Source: Rhodospirillaceae bacterium MC! (lineage in GTDB: Bacteria; Pseudomonadota; Alphaproteobacteria; MC1). From it: a stretch of 64,000 bases of DNA. The stretch is taken from positions 55,583 through 119,582 of the forward strand of contig NQOV01000007.1 of the NCBI GenBank assembly GCA_002632265.1. The letters run 5' to 3'. The notes under the pieces are model-generated. The model did no database searches. It had not been told where the DNA came from and saw nothing but the letters and a program-made list of their open reading frames with translations. Below, in pieces: positions 34,260 to 47,389 of the stretch (its first letter is position 1; each line of letters opens with the position of its first letter). The translations under genes were made by a program, and so were the position numbers.

Positions 34260-34664
34260 TTATTTTTCACTTTCTACAAGTTCCTTTTGTAAGTCTTCTT
34301 CGGAGATGATTCCAATAAAGCGACTGTTGGATAAGCCATCCAATATATTTTTAATTTTCGGATCTTTTGAGATGTCTTCCAGTTGATCGGCTAAGATCTT
34401 TTGTTCTTGTTGCTTTATGGTTAAATCCCCTAAGCTGGGATCGCTTGAGAGAGAGATTTCCCACTTTTTAAAGGTTTGTTCTTGTAAAAATAGGGCTATG
34501 GATGTTTGCAAGCCGTTGGGGGCATTGGTTGCTAAACGATATTTAAAATATCCATTTTTAAATTCGATTACATGAATGAAACGCTCCATATTAGTACGCA
34601 ATATGGATTCTTTCTTAAGGCGTGCCAACTCTATCAGTTCGTGAAAACTAGATACGGTTGGCAC
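34260..34664 (-). CDS. dnaX: 134-aa ORF in the -1 frame directly abutting the dnaX stop. It is a probable C-terminal (tau-specific) segment of DnaX separated by a frame change. It starts at GTG.
   Basis: The ORF starts within gagTAGtaGTGcca, overlapping the dnaX stop. The -1 frame is open from the A5G5 run onward. The usual downstream gene ybaB is absent and this ORF does not resemble YbaB. Confidence 0.35.
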   Translation of the reverse strand: MPTVSSFHELIELARLKKESILRTNMERFIHVIEFKNGYFKYRLATNAPNGLQTSIALFLQEQTFKKWEISLSSDPSLGDLTIKQQEQKILADQLEDISKDPKIKNILDGLSNSRFIGIISEEDLQKELVESEK

Positions 34665-34666
34665 TA

Positions 34667-35866
34667 CTACTCCCCCTTTTTAGTGTCTCCTTGTTTCACT
34701 TGGATCATTTTTGCCAACTGTTCTGATGTGGGAAGAGTTGAAGCGTAAGATATTGTAATCAAAGCCATTTCTAAAGCTTGTAATTGGTTGGGTGCAGAAT
34801 TTACATCCTGTAAGGATTTAAGTAACATTTGCCATAATCTTGCAAGCTCGGCAATGTTGATTTTATTGGATATTTCTTGCCCCTTTTCCAGATCCATACC
34901 ACTGGGGATATTTTCTCCTGCAAGCTGTGGCGAGACTTTAATTTTAGTCAGCCAATGAATGACAATTAAAAGATCTCGAATCACTACAATTGGCGAAATA
35001 CCTTGAGCGTATTGGGCATTTACCATTTCTAGCACTTGCGAGATCTCGCCAGAACTAAGCTTTTTAAATATTTCTATAATGATTCGACGATCGATGGCCC
35101 CGAGCATATTCATAACCACTTCTTCAGTAACATTATTAGCTCCATAGGATATGGCCTGATCCAGTAAAGATAAGCCATCACGTACAGATCCGTCAGAAGA
35201 TTGGGCGATCATGTTGATTGCTTGTTCTTCAAAGGGGATATCTTCCTTTTGCAAGATACTTTCGAAGTGTTTTTTTAGAGTTGGAACTTCTATACGGCGT
35301 AAATCAAAGCACTGGCAACGGCTTAAAACTGTTACGGGTACTTTTTGAATATCTGTAGTAGCCAAGATAAATTTCACGTGTGCGGGCGGTTCTTCTAAGG
35401 TCTTAAGGAGAGCGTTAAAAGATGATGTGGATAACATGTGAACCTCATCGATCACATATATTTTAAAACGTGCCGACGCTGTGGAATAACTTGTGTCATC
35501 TAAAATACTTCTGATGTTATCGATCCCTGTATTGGATGCGGCGTCGATCTCTAAAACATCCACATTCTGTCCTTTTGATATGGATGTACAATGTTCACAG
35601 ACACCGCAAGGATCTATGGTAATTTTGCCCTTACCGTCTTCGCCGATACAATTTAAGGATTTCGCAATTAATCTTGCGGTGGTGGTTTTCCCCACACCAC
35701 GGATTCCTGTAAGCATGAAAGAATGCACCAAACGTCCTGTATCTATGGCATTTGATAGGGTACGCACTAAAGCATCTTGACCAATTAAATCATGAAATGT
35801 CGACGGACGATATTTTCTCGCCAATACTTGATATTCATGATTATTTTCCTGCTGTTGATCAGTCAT
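34667..35866 (-). CDS. dnaX: DNA polymerase III subunit gamma/tau (gamma-length product, domains I-III).
   Basis: YRPSTFHDLIGQD, Walker A GIRGVGKTTTARLIAKSLNC, Zn module CGVCEHC, SRC motif. Confidence 0.9.
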   Translation of the reverse strand: MTDQQQENNHEYQVLARKYRPSTFHDLIGQDALVRTLSNAIDTGRLVHSFMLTGIRGVGKTTTARLIAKSLNCIGEDGKGKITIDPCGVCEHCTSISKGQNVDVLEIDAASNTGIDNIRSILDDTSYSTASARFKIYVIDEVHMLSTSSFNALLKTLEEPPAHVKFILATTDIQKVPVTVLSRCQCFDLRRIEVPTLKKHFESILQKEDIPFEEQAINMIAQSSDGSVRDGLSLLDQAISYGANNVTEEVVMNMLGAIDRRIIIEIFKKLSSGEISQVLEMVNAQYAQGISPIVVIRDLLIVIHWLTKIKVSPQLAGENIPSGMDLEKGQEISNKINIAELARLWQMLLKSLQDVNSAPNQLQALEMALITISYASTLPTSEQLAKMIQVKQGDTKKGE

Positions 35867-37018: not shown

Positions 37019-38005
37019 TTAATCTTTTAAGTTATCTCGTGGATGTGCTTTCATGTGTTCTTTTAGTAAGAGAGTGGCGTCGGCGTTGGTATAGCGTTGG
37101 GTTGTTGATAGGCTTTCGTGTCCTAGTAATTCTTGGATTGTTCTAAGATCTGTGCCGTTTGATAGTAAATGGGTGGCGAAAGTATGGCGAAAAGCGTGGG
37201 GAGTTACGCTTTCAGGTAATCCCAATTGATTCCTTAAGCGTGCAATCTGACGTTGAACAACTCTAGGGGATAATCTCTTCCCCCTTGCCCCAACAAATAA
37301 CGGATCATGATCATTTAAAGGAAAAGGACAGTTTTCCAAATAAAGATTAATATTTTTTATAATCGCAGGTAAGATCGGAACTCGGCGTTCTTTATTACCC
37401 TTACCAAGAATTGTCATAACTTCTTTTGTTGGCTTTTCTTTGATGTTTAAATTTAAGGCCTCACTAATACGCAAACCACCGCCATAAAGTAATAATAACA
37501 AAGCCTTATCACGATATGAGATCCAAGTGGTTTTGTGTGATTCGTGCCATTTACTTGTTGATATACTTTCAATGGTTTTTAGGGTTGTCATGGTTTCTTC
37601 TTGGGTCAAAGCCTTGGGAATCGATTGAGGAATTTTAGGAGATTTAACAATCCCTATGGCAGGATTATCAAGCCCTGCTTGTTGTTTCATATATTTGAAA
37701 AAACTACGAACTGTAGATAAATTACGAGAGATAGATGAATGTTTTACGCCTGCTTGATGTCTTTTTGCTAAGTAAGATCTAAAATCCATAGCTTCTAGCG
37801 TTCTAAGATCTTCCAAACCCGTACTATATCCTAGATGTTCTACTAGAAACTCAAAAAAGATGTTAATATCACGTGCATAAGCTTCAAGAGTATGGGTCGA
37901 GTAGCCTTTTTCATCATCTAAGTATCGACACCATTTCGCCACATAGTTGGCTAATTCTGGTTGTAAGATTGTATTATCTATATTGATAGCCATTTGTTCA
38001 AACAC
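37019..38005 (-). CDS. xerC: Tyrosine recombinase XerC/XerD.
   Basis: C-terminal catalytic motifs HAFRHTFATHLL…LGHESLSTTQRYT. It is preceded by a DUF484 gene as in dapF-yigA-xerC. Confidence 0.85.
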   Translation of the reverse strand: MFEQMAINIDNTILQPELANYVAKWCRYLDDEKGYSTHTLEAYARDINIFFEFLVEHLGYSTGLEDLRTLEAMDFRSYLAKRHQAGVKHSSISRNLSTVRSFFKYMKQQAGLDNPAIGIVKSPKIPQSIPKALTQEETMTTLKTIESISTSKWHESHKTTWISYRDKALLLLLYGGGLRISEALNLNIKEKPTKEVMTILGKGNKERRVPILPAIIKNINLYLENCPFPLNDHDPLFVGARGKRLSPRVVQRQIARLRNQLGLPESVTPHAFRHTFATHLLSNGTDLRTIQELLGHESLSTTQRYTNADATLLLKEHMKAHPRDNLKD

Positions 38006-40497: not shown

Positions 40498-40526
40498 TTG
40501 CAATTGTTAAGATTCTGTAGTATGAT
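40498..40526 (+). promoter_or_regulatory. Sigma-70-like promoter upstream of rpmJ.
   Basis: TTGCAA, a 17-bp spacer, then TATGAT. It lies ~45 bp upstream of the rpmJ start. Confidence 0.45.
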
Positions 40527-40572
40527 CTTCTCAAGTTTAAATTATTTAATTGATGAAAGTAAGGACATTATT

Positions 40573-40698
40573 ATGAAAATTCGTAATTCTTTAAAATCAG
40601 CTAAATTACGTGAGCGTGGCTGTCGTATCGTTCGTCGCCGTGGTCGTACTTACGTAATTAACAAACGTAACCCTCGTTTTAAAGCTCGTCAAGGCTAG
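40573..40698 (+). CDS. rpmJ: 50S ribosomal protein L36 (41 aa).
   Basis: [41 protein letters not shown] matches alphaproteobacterial L36. The larger track ORF 40498..40698 is an upstream extension. Confidence 0.75.
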
Positions 40699-40850: not shown

Positions 40851-41993
40851 ATGAAAAAATTATTATTGATATTGGCGATATTGGGATTTACAATCAGTAA
40901 CGCTTATGCGGAAAAGTTGTTTATAAATAAGAAGAATGCAAAAACTATCACATTACAACAGGTTGAAACAGCGTTAAAAAATGGGGCTGATATTCATAGA
41001 AATGAATATGGTACAACATCATTAATGTGGGCTAGTAGAGATAACCCCAACCCTAAAGTCATAGAAGTATTATTAAGTAATGGTGCTAATATTCATGCTA
41101 AAAATAACTTAGATACTACTCCATTAATGATTGCTAGTGGGTATAATCCCAATCCTAAAGTAATAGAATTACTATTAAATCACGGTGCAAATATTCATGC
41201 CATAGATATATGTACTCGTATGCCATTGATGTTTGCTAGTGGGTATAATCCTAATCCTAAAATAATAGACTTATTATTAAAACATGGTTCAAATATTCAT
41301 TCTAAAGATTGCGAAGGCATGACTCCATTAATGATTGCTAGTAAATCGAACCCTAATCCTCAAATACTAGAATTACTATTAAAACACAGTGCGAATGTTC
41401 ATGCTAAAGATAAAAAAGGCAATACATCTTTAATATTAGCTAATAAGGTCAAGAAACCCAATATTAAAGTAATAGAATTATTGTTACAAAATGGGGCGAA
41501 TATTCACGCTAAAAATAAAGAGGGTACTACCCCATTAATAATGGCTAGCAAGAATGTAAAAACAAATCTTAAAGTAATAAAACTATTATTACAACATGGT
41601 GCGAATATTAATGCTAAAGATAACTATGGTATGACACCTTTAATGAATGCTAGTTGGTTAAATTCAAATCCTAAAGTAATAGAATTACTATTAGAACAAG
41701 GTGCAAATATTAATGATAAAGTTAACGACGGCACTACGCCATTAATGTTTGCTAGTTGGTTTAACCATAATCCGCAAGTAATAGAATTGTTATTAAAACA
41801 TGGTGCAAATATTAATTATAAAGCTAAAAACGGAGCAACACCATTAATGTATGCGATTAATTATGCCAATCCTGAATCAGCCAAGGTCTTATTAAATCAC
41901 GGAGCTAAACCAACAAAAAAGATATTAAACTATATAGATACAAAATGTAAGAATGGTAAACTTATAGAATTATTTAACAAATATCCAAGATAA
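40851..41993 (+). CDS. Ankyrin-repeat protein (~10 repeats) with an N-terminal signal peptide.
   Basis: Repeated 33-aa units (TPLMIASGYNPNPKVIELLLNHGANIHA…) and the signal MKKLLLILAILGFTISNAYA. Confidence 0.85.
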   Translation: MKKLLLILAILGFTISNAYAEKLFINKKNAKTITLQQVETALKNGADIHRNEYGTTSLMWASRDNPNPKVIEVLLSNGANIHAKNNLDTTPLMIASGYNPNPKVIELLLNHGANIHAIDICTRMPLMFASGYNPNPKIIDLLLKHGSNIHSKDCEGMTPLMIASKSNPNPQILELLLKHSANVHAKDKKGNTSLILANKVKKPNIKVIELLLQNGANIHAKNKEGTTPLIMASKNVKTNLKVIKLLLQHGANINAKDNYGMTPLMNASWLNSNPKVIELLLEQGANINDKVNDGTTPLMFASWFNHNPQVIELLLKHGANINYKAKNGATPLMYAINYANPESAKVLLNHGAKPTKKILNYIDTKCKNGKLIELFNKYPR

Positions 41994-42034: not shown

Positions 42035-43018
42035 TTATAGGTTATTTAGATCTATGTTTCTTCTATATTTAATTATAATATCTTTATTACAACACGGCAT
42101 AATGTTACCAAATTGTTCTATTGCTGGTATACTTTGGAACATATTGAAACTTGATTCTTCATCATTATTATTGCCTGCTGGTTGAATAGGGTTTATTTCT
42201 CTAGTAATATGTAGAATTAATTTGTATTGTGAATTCTCTTGATGTTCAGGAATAACTTTGTGATCAAAAGATTCATAAATTCTTTCTTCTAATATTTTCC
42301 TAGTAGAAAGTAATTGACTAAATATTTTACAGTTTGGAAGAATAGGGTTATAGTTTTTAAGTTCTATTATATAAACTGTATTATTTAATATAATGACATC
42401 ATCACATCGGCTATTCTGTTTTTGTGCTAAAGTATATTCTAGTTTTTCTTTCATGATATCAAGATCTGACTTTACTCTATACTGCTCGCACAGTTGAAGA
42501 ACCTTGTTATCTATACCATTTTGGATTGTATTAATTTTTGAATTGAAATAATCTTCTCGGTTATTTGTAACAGCTTTACGACGATTATATTTTTCAATTT
42601 TTTTTGTAGCTTTATTTCTAGATTTTCTTATTTCTTCATCTAATAAGGCTCGTTTAGCCTCTTCAATACTCTCTTCATAGTTAGAAGTTTGAAATGGCTT
42701 TAAAAAGCAAGATTCTATTGTGCGTGGACAACATTGATGTGCTAAAGATCCAAGTAGGGGGCTTTCGTCATCATCATATTCATATTCTGGTAGTCTAGGT
42801 GGTAACCTATTTTGATTATTTGATAATTGATCATCAAAATTAGGTATATGCACAAATGTATCTTGTGCGGGATTAACTTTTAAATGAGCAAATGGGGGCG
42901 GTGTAGAATCTTCTGATAAATTAATTGTAAGAGTAATATCTGTATTATCTTGTTCTATATTATTGCGGTAATCGTTTATTTTGTGTGTTAGAAACTCATT
43001 ATTTTCGGTATTAGTCAT
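42035..43018 (-). CDS. Hypothetical protein with a disordered N-terminal half and a putative PD-(D/E)xK nuclease-like core. It is translationally coupled to the upstream ATPase.
   Basis: The start ATGACTAA overlaps the ATPase stop. A candidate motif is CDDVIILNNTVYIIELK (D…ExK). No HNH or TOPRIM motif was seen. Confidence 0.3.
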   Translation of the reverse strand: MTNTENNEFLTHKINDYRNNIEQDNTDITLTINLSEDSTPPPFAHLKVNPAQDTFVHIPNFDDQLSNNQNRLPPRLPEYEYDDDESPLLGSLAHQCCPRTIESCFLKPFQTSNYEESIEEAKRALLDEEIRKSRNKATKKIEKYNRRKAVTNNREDYFNSKINTIQNGIDNKVLQLCEQYRVKSDLDIMKEKLEYTLAQKQNSRCDDVIILNNTVYIIELKNYNPILPNCKIFSQLLSTRKILEERIYESFDHKVIPEHQENSQYKLILHITREINPIQPAGNNNDEESSFNMFQSIPAIEQFGNIMPCCNKDIIIKYRRNIDLNNL

Positions 43019-44525
43019 TATTCTTTCTTCTATGCTTATTGGCTATATCGTTTGTAAAATTTAGTATTTCATTTTGTTTTTTCATGGCATTATTAAAAGA
43101 CTCTAAATAAAAGCCATATTGATTTATTTCTTGTTGTTGGGTGTATCCATTATTATTTAGTGCATAAATATTTATTTTCTTTTGATTCATATCTAACAAC
43201 ATATTTTCACTTACATCTGTAAAGTTATTTAAATCTTTTTGATCTAATTCAGACATCTCAATACTACCCAATGCAACTAGTGCATTTAGTTCTCTGATCA
43301 TATAATCGCTATGGGTTGTTATTAATACTTTTAAGCCTGCGTTAATCATCATAGCTATAATTCTAGCCATTTTATTTTGGTTGGCAGGGTGTAAATAGGC
43401 TTCTGGCTCATCTATTATCAAAAAATCGCCCCTGCGTGCTTGATGTTTAAGATAGAAGTATATGAATGTTAAATTACGAATAGACGCAGAAAGTTCACGA
43501 TATGAAAGAAAATCACTTTCGCTTTTTACTTCACATTTACCATTCTTACAAGAATTTTCCTTAAATGGTTTAAAGTGAATACCGTCTTTATCATTATAGT
43601 CTATTCGTCCACCCATTAGTAATTCAAGTTCTTCAATTATAGGAGTGTTGCCATAATGGCCTTTCTTTCTTTTATTTTTATCCGTAATGTAAGATAGTTC
43701 TTTACCAAATTGAATATTATTAAATACTGGTTCTACATAGCCAATATTTTTATATAGTTGATTGTTAAATAGTAATGCTCCTGATCGCTCGGTTGTAGCA
43801 ATTTCAATATTTGTAAAAAATTCTTCTCTAAGAATTAAATGGCTGACTAAGTCAATTAAAATATTTTGTAAGCTTTTGTTCACATTTTCATTTGATAAAA
43901 TTTCTTTTTCTTCTTTTTCTTCTTCATATTCGTCTTCTTCGTCGATATAAAATGAAATTTGCATCCATTCATTATCTTCTATAAAGGTATTATATCGCTC
44001 TAATCGTTCTTGAAAATTTATATCTACTACTTTGTTTTCAAAATCAAATGAGAACAATCTATTTATTATATTATATCTACTAATTTGTTTCATTAATTTA
44101 AAAAAATCATCGTTAGTTTTAGTATTTACTATTTCAACTTTTAAAGGTTTTGAATCTTCATTTTTAAATCGGTCAATAGATGTATTAAACACCTTACTTA
44201 AATCTAACAGGGTTAACTCTTGTTCTATTAGATTTATATAAATCTCTTCTATTATTTCTTGAAAAACATCTGTAGATATTTTTATTCCATATACTTTACT
44301 TTCAACAATACTATTAATTACTTCAAAAGTTTTCTTTAATTTTGTAGGATTCAATTTTCTTGTTTTTTGATTATTTCTATTTTCTTGAATCTTAGTCATA
44401 AGTTTCCATATGCTATATGTTATATAGCTTTTTCCAGTAGAATTTTCTCCTGCGATTATGGTTAAGTCGCCGATTTCTATATCAGCTTTTTTAACTGCTC
44501 CTAGATTTTCGATTTGTACTTTCAT
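43011..44525 (-). CDS. AAA_21/AAA_15-type ABC ATPase (SMC-like; the defence-associated ATPase family of PtuA/AriA/OLD N-domain type).
   Basis: N-terminal Walker A (AGENSTGKSY), a central acidic coiled region, and C-terminal Walker B/D-loop/H-loop (DFLIIDEPEAYLHP … VLITTHS). The RBS is aaggaga. Confidence 0.6.
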   Translation of the reverse strand: MKVQIENLGAVKKADIEIGDLTIIAGENSTGKSYITYSIWKLMTKIQENRNNQKTRKLNPTKLKKTFEVINSIVESKVYGIKISTDVFQEIIEEIYINLIEQELTLLDLSKVFNTSIDRFKNEDSKPLKVEIVNTKTNDDFFKLMKQISRYNIINRLFSFDFENKVVDINFQERLERYNTFIEDNEWMQISFYIDEEDEYEEEKEEKEILSNENVNKSLQNILIDLVSHLILREEFFTNIEIATTERSGALLFNNQLYKNIGYVEPVFNNIQFGKELSYITDKNKRKKGHYGNTPIIEELELLMGGRIDYNDKDGIHFKPFKENSCKNGKCEVKSESDFLSYRELSASIRNLTFIYFYLKHQARRGDFLIIDEPEAYLHPANQNKMARIIAMMINAGLKVLITTHSDYMIRELNALVALGSIEMSELDQKDLNNFTDVSENMLLDMNQKKINIYALNNNGYTQQQEINQYGFYLESFNNAMKKQNEILNFTNDIANKHRRKNND

Positions 44526-44603
44526 GCTGTTATCTCCTTGGTATTAATGTAACCATATCATAGGGTAGTTTATTTTGTCAACAATAAACGATCAAGGGGA
44601 AAT

Positions 44604-45551
44604 TTATTCATCTTCCCCATTATCTATCCCTATGATACTATGGGCGAAGTCTTTGGCTTGGAAGCCTCGTAAGTCGTCGGCTTGTTCGCCGACGCCGATG
44701 GCGTGGATTGGTAAGTGGAATTTGTCGGCTAGGGATACGACTATCCCGCCTTTTGCTGTGCCGTCTAGTTTGGTTATGATTAGGCCTGTGGTGTTAACGG
44801 CTTTGGCGAAGATTTCCACTTGGTTCATGGCGTTTTGTCCTGCGGTGGCGTCGAGAACTTGAACGGTGGAATGGGGGGCGTCTGGGAGAAGTTTTTGGAT
44901 TACTCTTTGGACTTTGGTTAGCTCATCCATTAAGTGTTGTTGATTGTGCAAACGTCCTGCTGTATCGATGATTAAGATATCGTATTTGCCGTCTATGGCT
45001 TGCTCTAGGGCCTCGAATGCTACGGATGCGGAATCTGTTCCCTCGGGTTTGCGGATAACAGGGCAACCAGTTTTTAAGCCCCATACCTTTAATTGTTCCA
45101 CGGCGGCGGCTCTAAAGGTATCGCCTGCGGCAAGCATTACCATATGCCCAGCCGTACGCCAATGGCGGGCCAGTTTGCCGATAGTGGTGGTTTTTCCGCT
45201 ACCATTTACGCCAGTTACAAGCAATACATAGGGGGTTTTGGTTTTGATCTCGTCCATATCGAAAGGTTTGGCTATGGGAGTAAGGATTTCTTCAATTCTA
45301 TGGGAAAGAAATTCTTTAATATCGTGATCGCTCACTTCTTTTTCAAAGCGAGTTTTTGCGAATTCGTCCACTAATTTGGTAGCGGTAACAGCTCCAAGAT
45401 CAGCCATGATCAAGATATCCACCAGATCATCAATGGCCGCTTGATCTAGCACTCTTTTACCAAATACGCTACTGATATTTCTATTTAATTTAGAACTTGT
45501 TTGAGAAAGTCCTTGTTTAAGTCTTTTAAACCATGTGTTTTTTTCAATCAT
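44604..45551 (-). CDS. ftsY: Signal recognition particle receptor FtsY (short form, NG domain only).
   Basis: GVNGSGKTTTIGKLA, DTAGR, and a GTPase G4/G5 pattern. 315 aa. Confidence 0.9.
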   Translation of the reverse strand: MIEKNTWFKRLKQGLSQTSSKLNRNISSVFGKRVLDQAAIDDLVDILIMADLGAVTATKLVDEFAKTRFEKEVSDHDIKEFLSHRIEEILTPIAKPFDMDEIKTKTPYVLLVTGVNGSGKTTTIGKLARHWRTAGHMVMLAAGDTFRAAAVEQLKVWGLKTGCPVIRKPEGTDSASVAFEALEQAIDGKYDILIIDTAGRLHNQQHLMDELTKVQRVIQKLLPDAPHSTVQVLDATAGQNAMNQVEIFAKAVNTTGLIITKLDGTAKGGIVVSLADKFHLPIHAIGVGEQADDLRGFQAKDFAHSIIGIDNGEDE

Positions 45552-46759: not shown

Positions 46760-47164
46760 TTACTTGCTAATATTTAATAGTTTAGATAGAATGTTCTGTA
46801 ACTCATCTTTAGAAATTGCGTTTTGTGCTACGTCAACTACAATATCTTCCATGGTGGTGATGTATTTAGTTCTAAAATCTTGTGTTTTATAGCCGTTTAT
46901 ACTCAAAAACAATAGGCTAATTACGATACTAGCTCGCTTGTTACCGTCTAGGAAGATATGGTTTTTTATTATGCTATATATTAAATGGGTTAGTTTATCT
47001 AAAAATGTTGGATAGTAATCATCGTTTTGCATATGCTCTAAAATTGAATTAATTTTCTCTTGTTCTGCAATAGAATATCCAACTTTAGAAAGCCCACCTG
47101 ATTTAGTAATAAGATCATGGTGGGTTTGTAAAACTTCAAATAAGTATAGATATAGAATTTTCAT
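46760..47164 (-). CDS. doc: Doc (death-on-curing) Fic-fold toxin.
   Basis: Fic/Doc motif HIFLDGNKRAS. 134 aa. Confidence 0.75.
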   Translation of the reverse strand: MKILYLYLFEVLQTHHDLITKSGGLSKVGYSIAEQEKINSILEHMQNDDYYPTFLDKLTHLIYSIIKNHIFLDGNKRASIVISLLFLSINGYKTQDFRTKYITTMEDIVVDVAQNAISKDELQNILSKLLNISK

Positions 47165-47170
47165 AGGCTG

Positions 47171-47389
47171 TTATTTATCTTTAAGGCGTTTAAATACATC
47201 TATATGTTGGGTAGTACTTTGGTTTACTCCTGCTAGTGCTTGCATACGATCTTTATAGGCAGGATCATTACAAAACTTTTGTAATTCTGTTTTGGAAATA
47301 TTTAAAGTTTTACTCCAATATTCCATTTCATGTGGTTCTTTAAGATTGATAATTGAATCTTGCTGTTTTTTAGTTACAGTATCTGACAT
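47171..47389 (-). CDS. DUF3606-like small protein, a putative non-canonical antitoxin partner of Doc.
   Basis: 72 aa, 6 bp upstream of doc on the same strand. The IINLKEPHEMEYWSKTLNISKTELQKF pattern resembles DUF3606 (…YWAKKFGVS..EL…). Confidence 0.4.
   Translation of the reverse strand: MSDTVTKKQQDSIINLKEPHEMEYWSKTLNISKTELQKFCNDPAYKDRMQALAGVNQSTTQHIDVFKRLKDK

Follow-up and report, generated by a model that had tools for sequence, protein, structure and literature searches.

A probable ATPase-nuclease gene pair of the PD-T4-4/WonAB type

The 64,000 nucleotide stretch of contig NQOV01000007.1 of Rhodospirillaceae bacterium MC! analysed here (the window) harbors two adjacent, ATG-initiated open reading frames (ORFs) on its minus strand, coding for a 504 amino acid (aa) ATPase (43011..44525) and a 327 aa partner protein (42035..43018). 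We consider it likely that they constitute a two-gene ATPase-nuclease module of the PD-T4-4/WonAB type, in which an OLD-family ABC ATPase, the proposed sensor or regulator subunit, is translationally coupled to a PD-(D/E)xK nuclease effector. An initial annotation, made from the sequence alone, had put the pair forward as a potentially new ATPase-nuclease variant with an open effector identity. The partner indeed carries none of the HNH, TOPRIM or helicase domains of other such systems, but the pairing of an ABC ATPase with a PD-(D/E)xK protein has been published for both PD-T4-4 and WonAB, and the pair is as such a very divergent and rare version of a described gene pair, not a new kind of system. 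The ORF coordinates given in that annotation are exact, although the strand was missing, and every motif quoted could be located in the translations of the two genes.

The ATPase and its family

The 504 aa protein belongs to the PD-T4-4_A/PDC-M47A family of OLD-type ABC ATPases. Comparison against the PADLOC profiles yielded PD-T4-4_A as the top match (E-value: 1.2e-58; Bitscore: 197), followed by PDC-M47A (6.9e-52), with a second PD-T4-4_A model matching at 3.9e-40, while weaker matches were obtained for NsnB (6.9e-24), AriA (4.4e-22), Old (7.6e-16), HEC-02A (1.1e-15) and GajA (about 1e-10). The AAA_15 (1.1e-21) and AAA_21 (1.5e-10) domains of Pfam were likewise recognized, in agreement with the OLD-type ABC architecture previously proposed for this protein, and the nearest solved chain is that of the OLD-family nuclease 6p74 (E-value: 1.7e-4). 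The likeness had, however, been drawn only to the Septu, PARIS, Gabija and RloC systems, and this restriction does not hold, as PD-T4-4_A is the best match by far and PD-T4-4/WonAB had been overlooked. Membership of Septu, PARIS or Gabija was considered and rejected: the partner contains no HNH, DUF4435/TOPRIM or helicase domain in the Pfam and PADLOC comparisons, and the AriA, GajA and PtuA matches of the ATPase are at least 35 orders of magnitude weaker than that to PD-T4-4_A.

The protein carries a Walker A motif or P-loop (GENSTGKS, residues 26-33, 44427..44450, followed by Y34), an acidic stretch (DEEDEYEEEKEEKE) at approximately residues 196-209, a Walker B motif (LIIDEPEAYLHP, residues 369-380; FLIIDEPE, residues 368-375, 43401..43424) and an H-loop (TTHS, residues 403-406, 43308..43319), all encoded on the minus strand. 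Among the 705 homologues detected at an E-value of 1e-5 or below, 30 were aligned, and residues G26, N28, G31, K32, R247, S346, S348, D372, E373 and H405 are invariant across these; I371, P374 and E375 in the Walker B region and T404 and S406 in the H-loop are likewise invariant. As the Walker A, R247, S346/S348, Walker B and H-loop positions are all invariant, the ATPase looks active, and we infer that R247 is equivalent to R182 of WonA, or the Q-loop position. The closest relatives, P0003, P0004 and P0005, share 30-38% amino acid identity with the ATPase and have its extra inserts and longer chain in common, with lengths of 504-648 aa in these four proteins as opposed to approximately 460 aa in canonical members. 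The PD-T4-4_A score (1e-58) is accordingly below that of the canonical members (1e-105 to 1e-123).

Conservation of the gene pair

The stop codon of the ATPase gene (...AAT GAC TAA) overlaps the start of the partner gene (ATG ACT AA.) by 8 nucleotides (ATGACTAA, 43011..43018, minus strand), which confirms the tight coupling of the two genes claimed in the initial annotation. Genome loci containing relatives of the ATPase numbered 80, with a complete ATPase gene in 79. In all 79 of these the ATPase stop is accompanied, at a distance of -37 to +38 nt, by the start of a co-directional ORF, which comprises at least 88 aa and, where complete, 141-232 aa. The pairing of ATPase and partner is conserved in every relative examined. 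Although the ORF-bearing DNA of the pair has a G+C content of only approximately 28%, both long ORFs are intact, and these two ORFs, the 705 homologues of the ATPase and the recurring two-gene arrangement together argue that the pair represents more than a chance observation. Four relatives of the partner were found, and each is encoded directly downstream of one of the three closest ATPase relatives or, in locus L086, of an ATPase fragment which matches the C-terminus of the ATPase (2e-9). The junctions in this partner family consist of a 6-nt spacer in L001, an 8-nt overlap, as in the window, in L002 and a 2-nt spacer in L003.

The loci of the relatives occupy quite different contexts, and the pair can therefore not be regarded as a syntenic housekeeping operon. 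In both L002 (1236-8262) and L005 (521-8117) a PD-T4-4-like pair is inserted, with a gene for an N6_N4 DNA methyltransferase on one side and one for a ResIII helicase on the other, and with RE_endonuc and DUF4391 genes additionally present in L002, and these pairs are embedded in type III-like restriction-modification loci. L002 carries the partner family of the window and represents the closest relative with sufficient flanking sequence, while L005 encodes a canonical partner matching PDC-M47B (9.7e-9) and PD-T4-4_B (6.3e-5). A further sampled canonical partner, from L004, matches these two profiles at only 4e-4 and 2e-3, respectively. Other relatives of the pair are found on small Col-type plasmids, among them the bona fide PD-T4-4 system of E. 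coli on the 4.8-kb plasmid NZ_CP051743.1 (PD-T4-4_A: 3.2e-123; PD-T4-4_B: 1.1e-43), while partial relatives occur in Vibrio phages.

A second ATPase paralogue follows the pair in L001 (4088-5302) and L086 (1303-1614). The Walker A motif of this paralogue is degenerate, reading GSDSGDLNK and GSDDGNLHK in place of GxNxxGK[ST], but good conservation is seen in the C-terminal half (PD-T4-4_A: 3e-48). In L001 it is followed by the beginning of another partner-like gene. Such a gene order resembles a tandem A-B-A'-B' arrangement, of which the window shows no counterpart.

The partner protein

The 327 aa partner has no Pfam family above threshold, the nearest being NERD (PF08378; Bitscore: 19.9 against a cutoff of 22.1; E-value: 0.0011; residues 174-238), and no match was found in NCBIfam or PHROG. 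An exhaustive phmmer search with residues 101-327 against 1.84 billion representative proteins identified three relatives (P0122, P0123 and P0124), and a fourth was found in L002, the locus of P0005. A word-indexed search returned the partner only, a profile search the partner and P0123, and no relatives were found in plasmids by tblastn or in pattern scans of metagenome and viral contigs. The five sequences, which make up the family alignment, are 24-27% identical overall.

The D...ExK signature noted for this protein in the initial annotation is present (CDDVIILNNTVYIIELK, residues 205-221), its residues are invariant in the family, and it fits a PD-(D/E)xK nuclease. The same annotation had described the N-terminal half as low-complexity, and this has to be corrected: H57, I58, D62 and D63, which form the motif HIPxFDD, and C96 and C104 are invariant in all five members, and this half is thus a conserved protein region, not merely one of low complexity. 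From the core onwards C205, D206, D207, I218, E219, K221, P228, C230 and S238 are invariant, followed by I268, L269, C309, I314 and I322 towards the C-terminus. The region of approximately 190 residues ahead of the core is family-specific and includes a helical stretch, at approximately residues 114-200 in a low-confidence model, which is much shorter in the L002 member. The invariance of five cysteines (C96, C104, C205, C230 and C309) in a family this diverged suggests a metal-binding site, potentially for Zn or Fe-S. Canonical partners also contain semi-conserved cysteines, at other positions. As to the role of the N-terminal HIPxFDD region, with the helical segment that follows it, and of the cysteines, we can offer only the guess that they form a metal site or a module for docking to the target or the ATPase.

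Comparison with the canonical PD-T4-4_B-like partners points to a common catalytic core at residues 200-241 (42296..42421, minus strand). Alignment of the partner family with 48 canonical partners using hhalign gave a probability of 78.2% (E-value: 1.8e-5; score: 40.9) over 41 columns, while the reversed query scored 11.1 and 60 block-shuffled queries scored 16.8 on average (standard deviation: 3.1; maximum: 23.3). In an HMM constructed from 75 canonical partners, the five family members align in a single register over RCDD-hhhh...hhIExK...QLLS, and with this HMM the partner ranks first among the 185 ORFs of at least 60 aa in the window (E-value: 0.009). Reciprocally, when the family HMM was compared against the 2639 ORFs of 82 other loci, canonical partners, which make up 2.8% of this set, occupied nine of the top ten and 14 of the top twenty positions.

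The 48 canonical partners contain five near-invariant residues in a D...ExK...Q...Y pattern (consensus: geCKRaDfvIi...I..iEmK...ii.QLkGa.Cf..YC), and four of these, D, E, K and Q, fall on invariant residues of the partner family. D206/D207, E219 and K221, invariant in 5/5 members, align with the near-invariant D77, E94 and K96 of the canonical partners, and the partner pattern RCDDvII…IIELK…QLLS can be followed in a direct comparison of the E. coli PD-T4-4_B core (SCDLVIV...VVVLDLK) with that of the partner (RCDDVIIL...VYIIELK). The weak Pfam matches of the canonical partners are to HSDR_N_2, HSDR_N, MutH and NERD, all of which we take to be PD-(D/E)xK (restriction-endonuclease-fold) families. 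Judged by these sequence comparisons, the partner very probably shares ancestry with the PD-T4-4_B-type nuclease, from which it has diverged deeply, and D207 (or D206), E219 and K221, with the conserved Q235 in the following helix, are proposed as its catalytic residues. The only structural hint comes from a low-confidence full-length model, in which the order of helix (186-200), strand (205-211), strand (214-221), helix (231-249) and strand (265-272) would fit a restriction-endonuclease core, D207 lying in one strand and E219-x-K221 in the strand after it.

Comparison with known systems and proposed mechanism

The PD-T4-4 system was recovered by functional selection in E. coli and protects against phage (PMC9519451). 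It consists of a P-loop/ABC ATPase and a PD-(D/E)xK nuclease (PMC10952713; bioRxiv 10.1101/2025.07.10.664194). The same architecture is found in WonAB and in an 'OLD-ABC ATPase + novel REase' operon, and PD-T4-4 has been placed in the same wider family as WonAB (PMC12137116). In common with PD-T4-4 and PDC-M47, the window encodes two co-directional, tightly coupled genes in the order A then B, of which the first codes for an OLD-type ABC ATPase that belongs to the same family and the second contains the core [KR][AC]D-hhhh...hhh[ED]hK...Q in the same order and spacing; relatives of the pair are, furthermore, located on small plasmids and inside restriction-modification loci. The ABC-ATPase survey behind the 'OLD-ABC ATPase + novel REase' operon is reportedly that of Krishnan et al. 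2020. Unlike the PD-T4-4 nuclease, which is approximately 185-200 aa in length, the partner comprises 327 aa, is missed by the PD-T4-4_B and PDC-M47B HMMs, with only the 41-residue core in common, and has its own HIPxFDD motif, five invariant cysteines and helical insert. The ATPase, in turn, differs from that of PD-T4-4 in its extra inserts, greater length and lower profile score. As the effector fails the profile test and differs in architecture, while the ATPase falls within the family, the pair is neither a full member of PD-T4-4 nor a new system.

WonAB of the Vibrio cholerae WASA-1 prophage, which was compared by its description, resembles the pair in combining an OLD-type ABC ATPase with a small nuclease of a PD-(D/E)xK variant (PMC12137116). 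It differs in being prophage-borne, whereas the pair of the window is situated among chromosomal housekeeping genes, and in the size of the nuclease, the partner being much larger. The PARIS (AriAB), Septu (PtuAB), Gabija (GajAB), OLD and HEC-01/02/03 systems similarly join a superfamily ABC ATPase, as sensor or regulator, to a nuclease effector. The effectors in these are of the TOPRIM/DUF4435, HNH, TOPRIM fused with helicase, NERD or PIN types, and the partner matches none of them save NERD, just below the threshold, while the ATPase is clearly closer to PD-T4-4_A.

By analogy, WonAB would provide the best mechanistic model for the pair. It requires ATPase residues K34, R182, E300 and H333 and nuclease lysine K71, and aborts ICP1 infection without lysis, with the DNA staying intact and translation being shut down (PMC12137116). 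The dimerised C-terminal extensions of WonA are the predicted binding site of WonB, which is toxic only with active WonA, a simple toxin-antitoxin model having been excluded experimentally (PMC12137116). The PD-T4-4 system of E. coli (EcPD-T4-4) forms higher-order complexes and cut 0/11 DNA substrates in vitro (bioRxiv 10.1101/2025.07.10.664194), which is compatible with its requiring a cue or acting on RNA. If the pair functions in a comparable manner to WonAB and PD-T4-4, the ATPase would dimerise around ATP and hold the nuclease by its C-terminal region. A cue derived from the infection would be sensed, probably through the variable insert regions of the ATPase, which would then license the nuclease to cut nucleic acid and so stop phage production. 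Instead of bulk DNA, the nuclease might attack an RNA of the translation apparatus, in line with the proposal for WonB, and abortive infection would be the likely outcome.

Genomic context and expression signals

The genes flanking the pair correspond to those previously noted, namely an ankyrin-repeat gene (40851..41993, plus strand), ftsY (44604..45551, minus strand), a XerC-type recombinase gene (37019..38005, minus strand) and a Fic/Doc gene (46760..47164, minus strand). The accessory-like context that the initial annotation read from them finds little support, as the surrounding 25 kb encode housekeeping functions: tsaD, hemC, dnaX, a formate/nitrite transporter, xerC with a DUF484 gene, a beta-eliminating lyase and rpmJ are found on one side, and ftsY, a PF03601 membrane protein, Fic/Doc with DUF3606, a SulP transporter, a radical-SAM/SPASM enzyme, ispF and ispD on the other. 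The recombinase was considered as a marker of a mobile element and rejected, since it adjoins the DUF484 gene, which we take to be the arrangement of chromosomal xerC loci. The pair is, however, compositionally foreign to these housekeeping surroundings. The G+C contents of its two genes (0.269 and 0.288; 0.276 for the pair) are the lowest in the window, where the ORFs average 0.364 (standard deviation: 0.037), suggesting horizontal acquisition, and the ankyrin-repeat gene is next lowest (0.297).

A promoter-like site (TTGACA-18 nt-TATGGT, with TG; 44552..44581, minus strand), which matches the consensus at 10/12 hexamer positions, falls within the 78 nt that separate the stop codon of ftsY from the start codon of the ATPase gene. 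The frequency of such sites in the region does not exceed that in shuffled sequences, and the site is suggestive as a candidate only. A Shine-Dalgarno-like AAGGAG (44534..44539, minus strand), read from the sequence, is located 8 nt upstream of the ATPase ATG.

The ankyrin-repeat gene (Pfam Ank: 8e-64) is convergent with the pair, 41 nt from the partner stop, and its product has a signal-peptide-like N-terminus. It was the only such gene found in the 64 kb by a crude motif screen. Of three related loci with sufficient flank, two also have an ankyrin gene adjoining the pair, namely L001 (175-1170, minus strand) and L003 (3-2054, minus strand), in both cases divergent and upstream, while an ankyrin-like ORF occurs within 6 kb in 1/82 canonical loci. 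The gene could be a third component, or merely reflect a common ankyrin-rich host lineage. Positions 40947-41908 (plus strand) within it display a regular 102-nt (34-codon) DNA repeat periodicity with copies that are 61-74% identical, which points to relatively recent internal repeat expansion or homogenisation.

Alternative explanations

A number of results weigh against the assignment of the pair as a PD-T4-4/WonAB-type module, most of them concerning the partner. Neither the PD-T4-4_B nor the PDC-M47B profile of PADLOC matches it at E-values up to 1, and the same holds for the three relatives tested. The likeness to canonical partners is confined to 41 residues, with hhalign probabilities for the N- and C-terminal parts of 0.5% or less, and the probability of 78% for the core is suggestive, not conclusive. 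The single E. coli PD-T4-4_B sequence aligned with the family profile at an insignificant 0.5%, although in the same register, and PDB sequence searches with either partner profile gave no meaningful match. Since the canonical partners are themselves interrelated, the hypergeometric p-values for the HMM ranking overstate independence. AlphaFold2 models are too poor to carry the argument, with a mean pLDDT of 39.8 for the full partner (four-sequence alignment) and 36.2 for residues 185-327, owing to insufficient alignment depth, and do not confirm the nuclease fold proposed in the initial annotation. Furthermore, no defence island, mobile-element integrase or adjacent tRNA is found in the window around the pair, and no convincing direct or inverted repeats flank it, the reported repeats being those of the ankyrin periodicity. 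The results on the partner could be taken to mean that the ATPase is PD-T4-4-like while the partner is no nuclease, D...ExK...Q being a short convergent or relic motif and the effector activity residing in the N-terminal region and the cysteines, for instance as a metal-dependent domain of some other activity. The NERD match below the Pfam cutoff and the invariant H57, I58, D62, D63 and five cysteines, which lie outside or around the core, would be in keeping with this. Yet the 41 columns are the catalytic core, where the partner family is invariant at four of the five positions that are near-invariant in canonical partners, the hhalign score lies far above the shuffled controls, the gene holds the operon position of the canonical nuclease, and the low-confidence models show the succession expected of the fold, strand-strand-helix-strand, around D207, E219-K221 and Q235; we consider a partner without nuclease activity unlikely. 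A similarly low probability is assigned to the partner being a new composite effector, in which a restriction-endonuclease core is combined with a cysteine-rich, probably metal-binding N-terminal module, and which is joined by the ankyrin gene, and sometimes by the ATPase paralogue with a dead Walker A, in a multi-component, lineage-specific conflict system. Were this the case, the trigger or target would be unlike those of PD-T4-4 and WonAB, in a lineage that is AT-rich and possibly host-associated.

The remaining alternatives concern the pair as a whole. It might play no part in phage defence in its host and instead be a toxin-antitoxin-like or selfish addiction module, or else a remnant in decay; post-segregational killing or drift would then have maintained it in a bacterium that is AT-rich and possibly host-associated. 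The pair forms a solitary islet among housekeeping genes, with Fic/Doc beside DUF3606 as the only defence-type gene nearby, its G+C content is foreign to the window, its partner family is extremely rare, and excess WonB is toxic (PMC12137116). Both ORFs are intact, however, with all catalytic motifs present and a promoter-like site and good ribosome-binding site ahead of the operon, relatives occur in restriction-modification contexts, and the dependence of WonB toxicity on active WonA excluded a toxin-antitoxin model for WonAB (PMC12137116), making an addiction module or remnant a rather improbable explanation, though the least improbable of the alternatives. A three-component module, in which the ankyrin-repeat protein works with the ATPase-nuclease pair, for example as sensor or adaptor, is very unlikely. 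The sole ankyrin gene detected by the crude screen of the window does abut the pair and has its low G+C content in common with it, and ankyrin genes adjoin the pair in L001 and L003 but rarely in the canonical loci. Its position varies, however, being convergent and downstream in the window but upstream and divergent in these two loci, the L002 pair is without any ankyrin gene, and only the window protein has the signal-peptide-like N-terminus, which suggests export. Moreover, the three ankyrin loci may stem from one ankyrin-rich lineage, two of them coming from runs with neighbouring SRA accession numbers, and the 30-40% identity observed is ordinary for ankyrin-repeat proteins. Least credible of all is that the 504 aa protein is a housekeeping ABC ATPase of repair or chromosome maintenance (RecF/RecN/SbcC/SMC type) and the downstream gene unrelated. 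Pfam SMC_N does show weak similarity (1.1e-6), but its 28.8 bits fall below the gathering cutoff of 40; RecF, RecN and SbcC are absent from the NCBIfam matches, all of which, including weak UvrA-type ones, lie far below their cutoffs and on the Walker B region only; the PD-T4-4_A match is better by approximately 50 orders of magnitude; and the downstream gene accompanies the ATPase in all relatives. By PADLOC, Pfam and NCBIfam the pair thus looks like a defence-type ATPase-nuclease module, in line with the initial annotation, rather than a repair protein.

Relevance to the detection of related systems

Nothing in the pair challenges the current understanding of these systems; its value is incremental and its architecture would not surprise a specialist. 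It does illustrate the extent of divergence within PD-T4-4/WonAB-type ATPase-nuclease immunity, the points of modest note being how rare and diverged the effector is, its escape from the PD-T4-4_B and PDC-M47B profiles of PADLOC-DB v2.0.0, and the ankyrin adjacency. A detection rule that demands HMM matches to both A and B would presumably miss this locus, and addition of the five-member partner family to the PADLOC profiles would close the gap. The enlarged N-terminal region of the partner, its invariant cysteines and the recurrent ankyrin neighbour furthermore provide handles on the role of the non-catalytic parts of such effectors.

Other features of the window

Three further observations were made in the surrounding genes. 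The Fic/Doc gene (134 aa; E-value: 1.1e-10) is preceded by a 72-aa DUF3606 gene (46760-47389 for both, minus strand), and the two may form a toxin-antitoxin-like pair, located 2.2 kb from the ATPase-partner module with ftsY and the PF03601 gene in between. The dnaX gene is split (34260-35866, minus strand; junction 34662-34682): a 399-aa ORF ends in TAG at 34667-34669 after ACT AAA AAG GGG GAG, and the reading of the C-terminal DUF3646 domain goes on in the -1 frame, open from position 34679 onwards. Possible explanations are a sequencing error in a homopolymer, a pseudogene, or AAAAAG slippage giving the long (tau) form. Together with the type of L36 encoded by rpmJ, the DUF3646 tail of DnaX may point to an alphaproteobacterial host with AT-rich DNA. 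Lastly, the Pfam domain of rpmJ (ribosomal protein L36; ORF 40498-40698, plus strand) covers residues 26-66 of the listed ORF, and since it begins only at residue 26, the true start is probably the ATG at 40573, which would yield a 41-aa protein.

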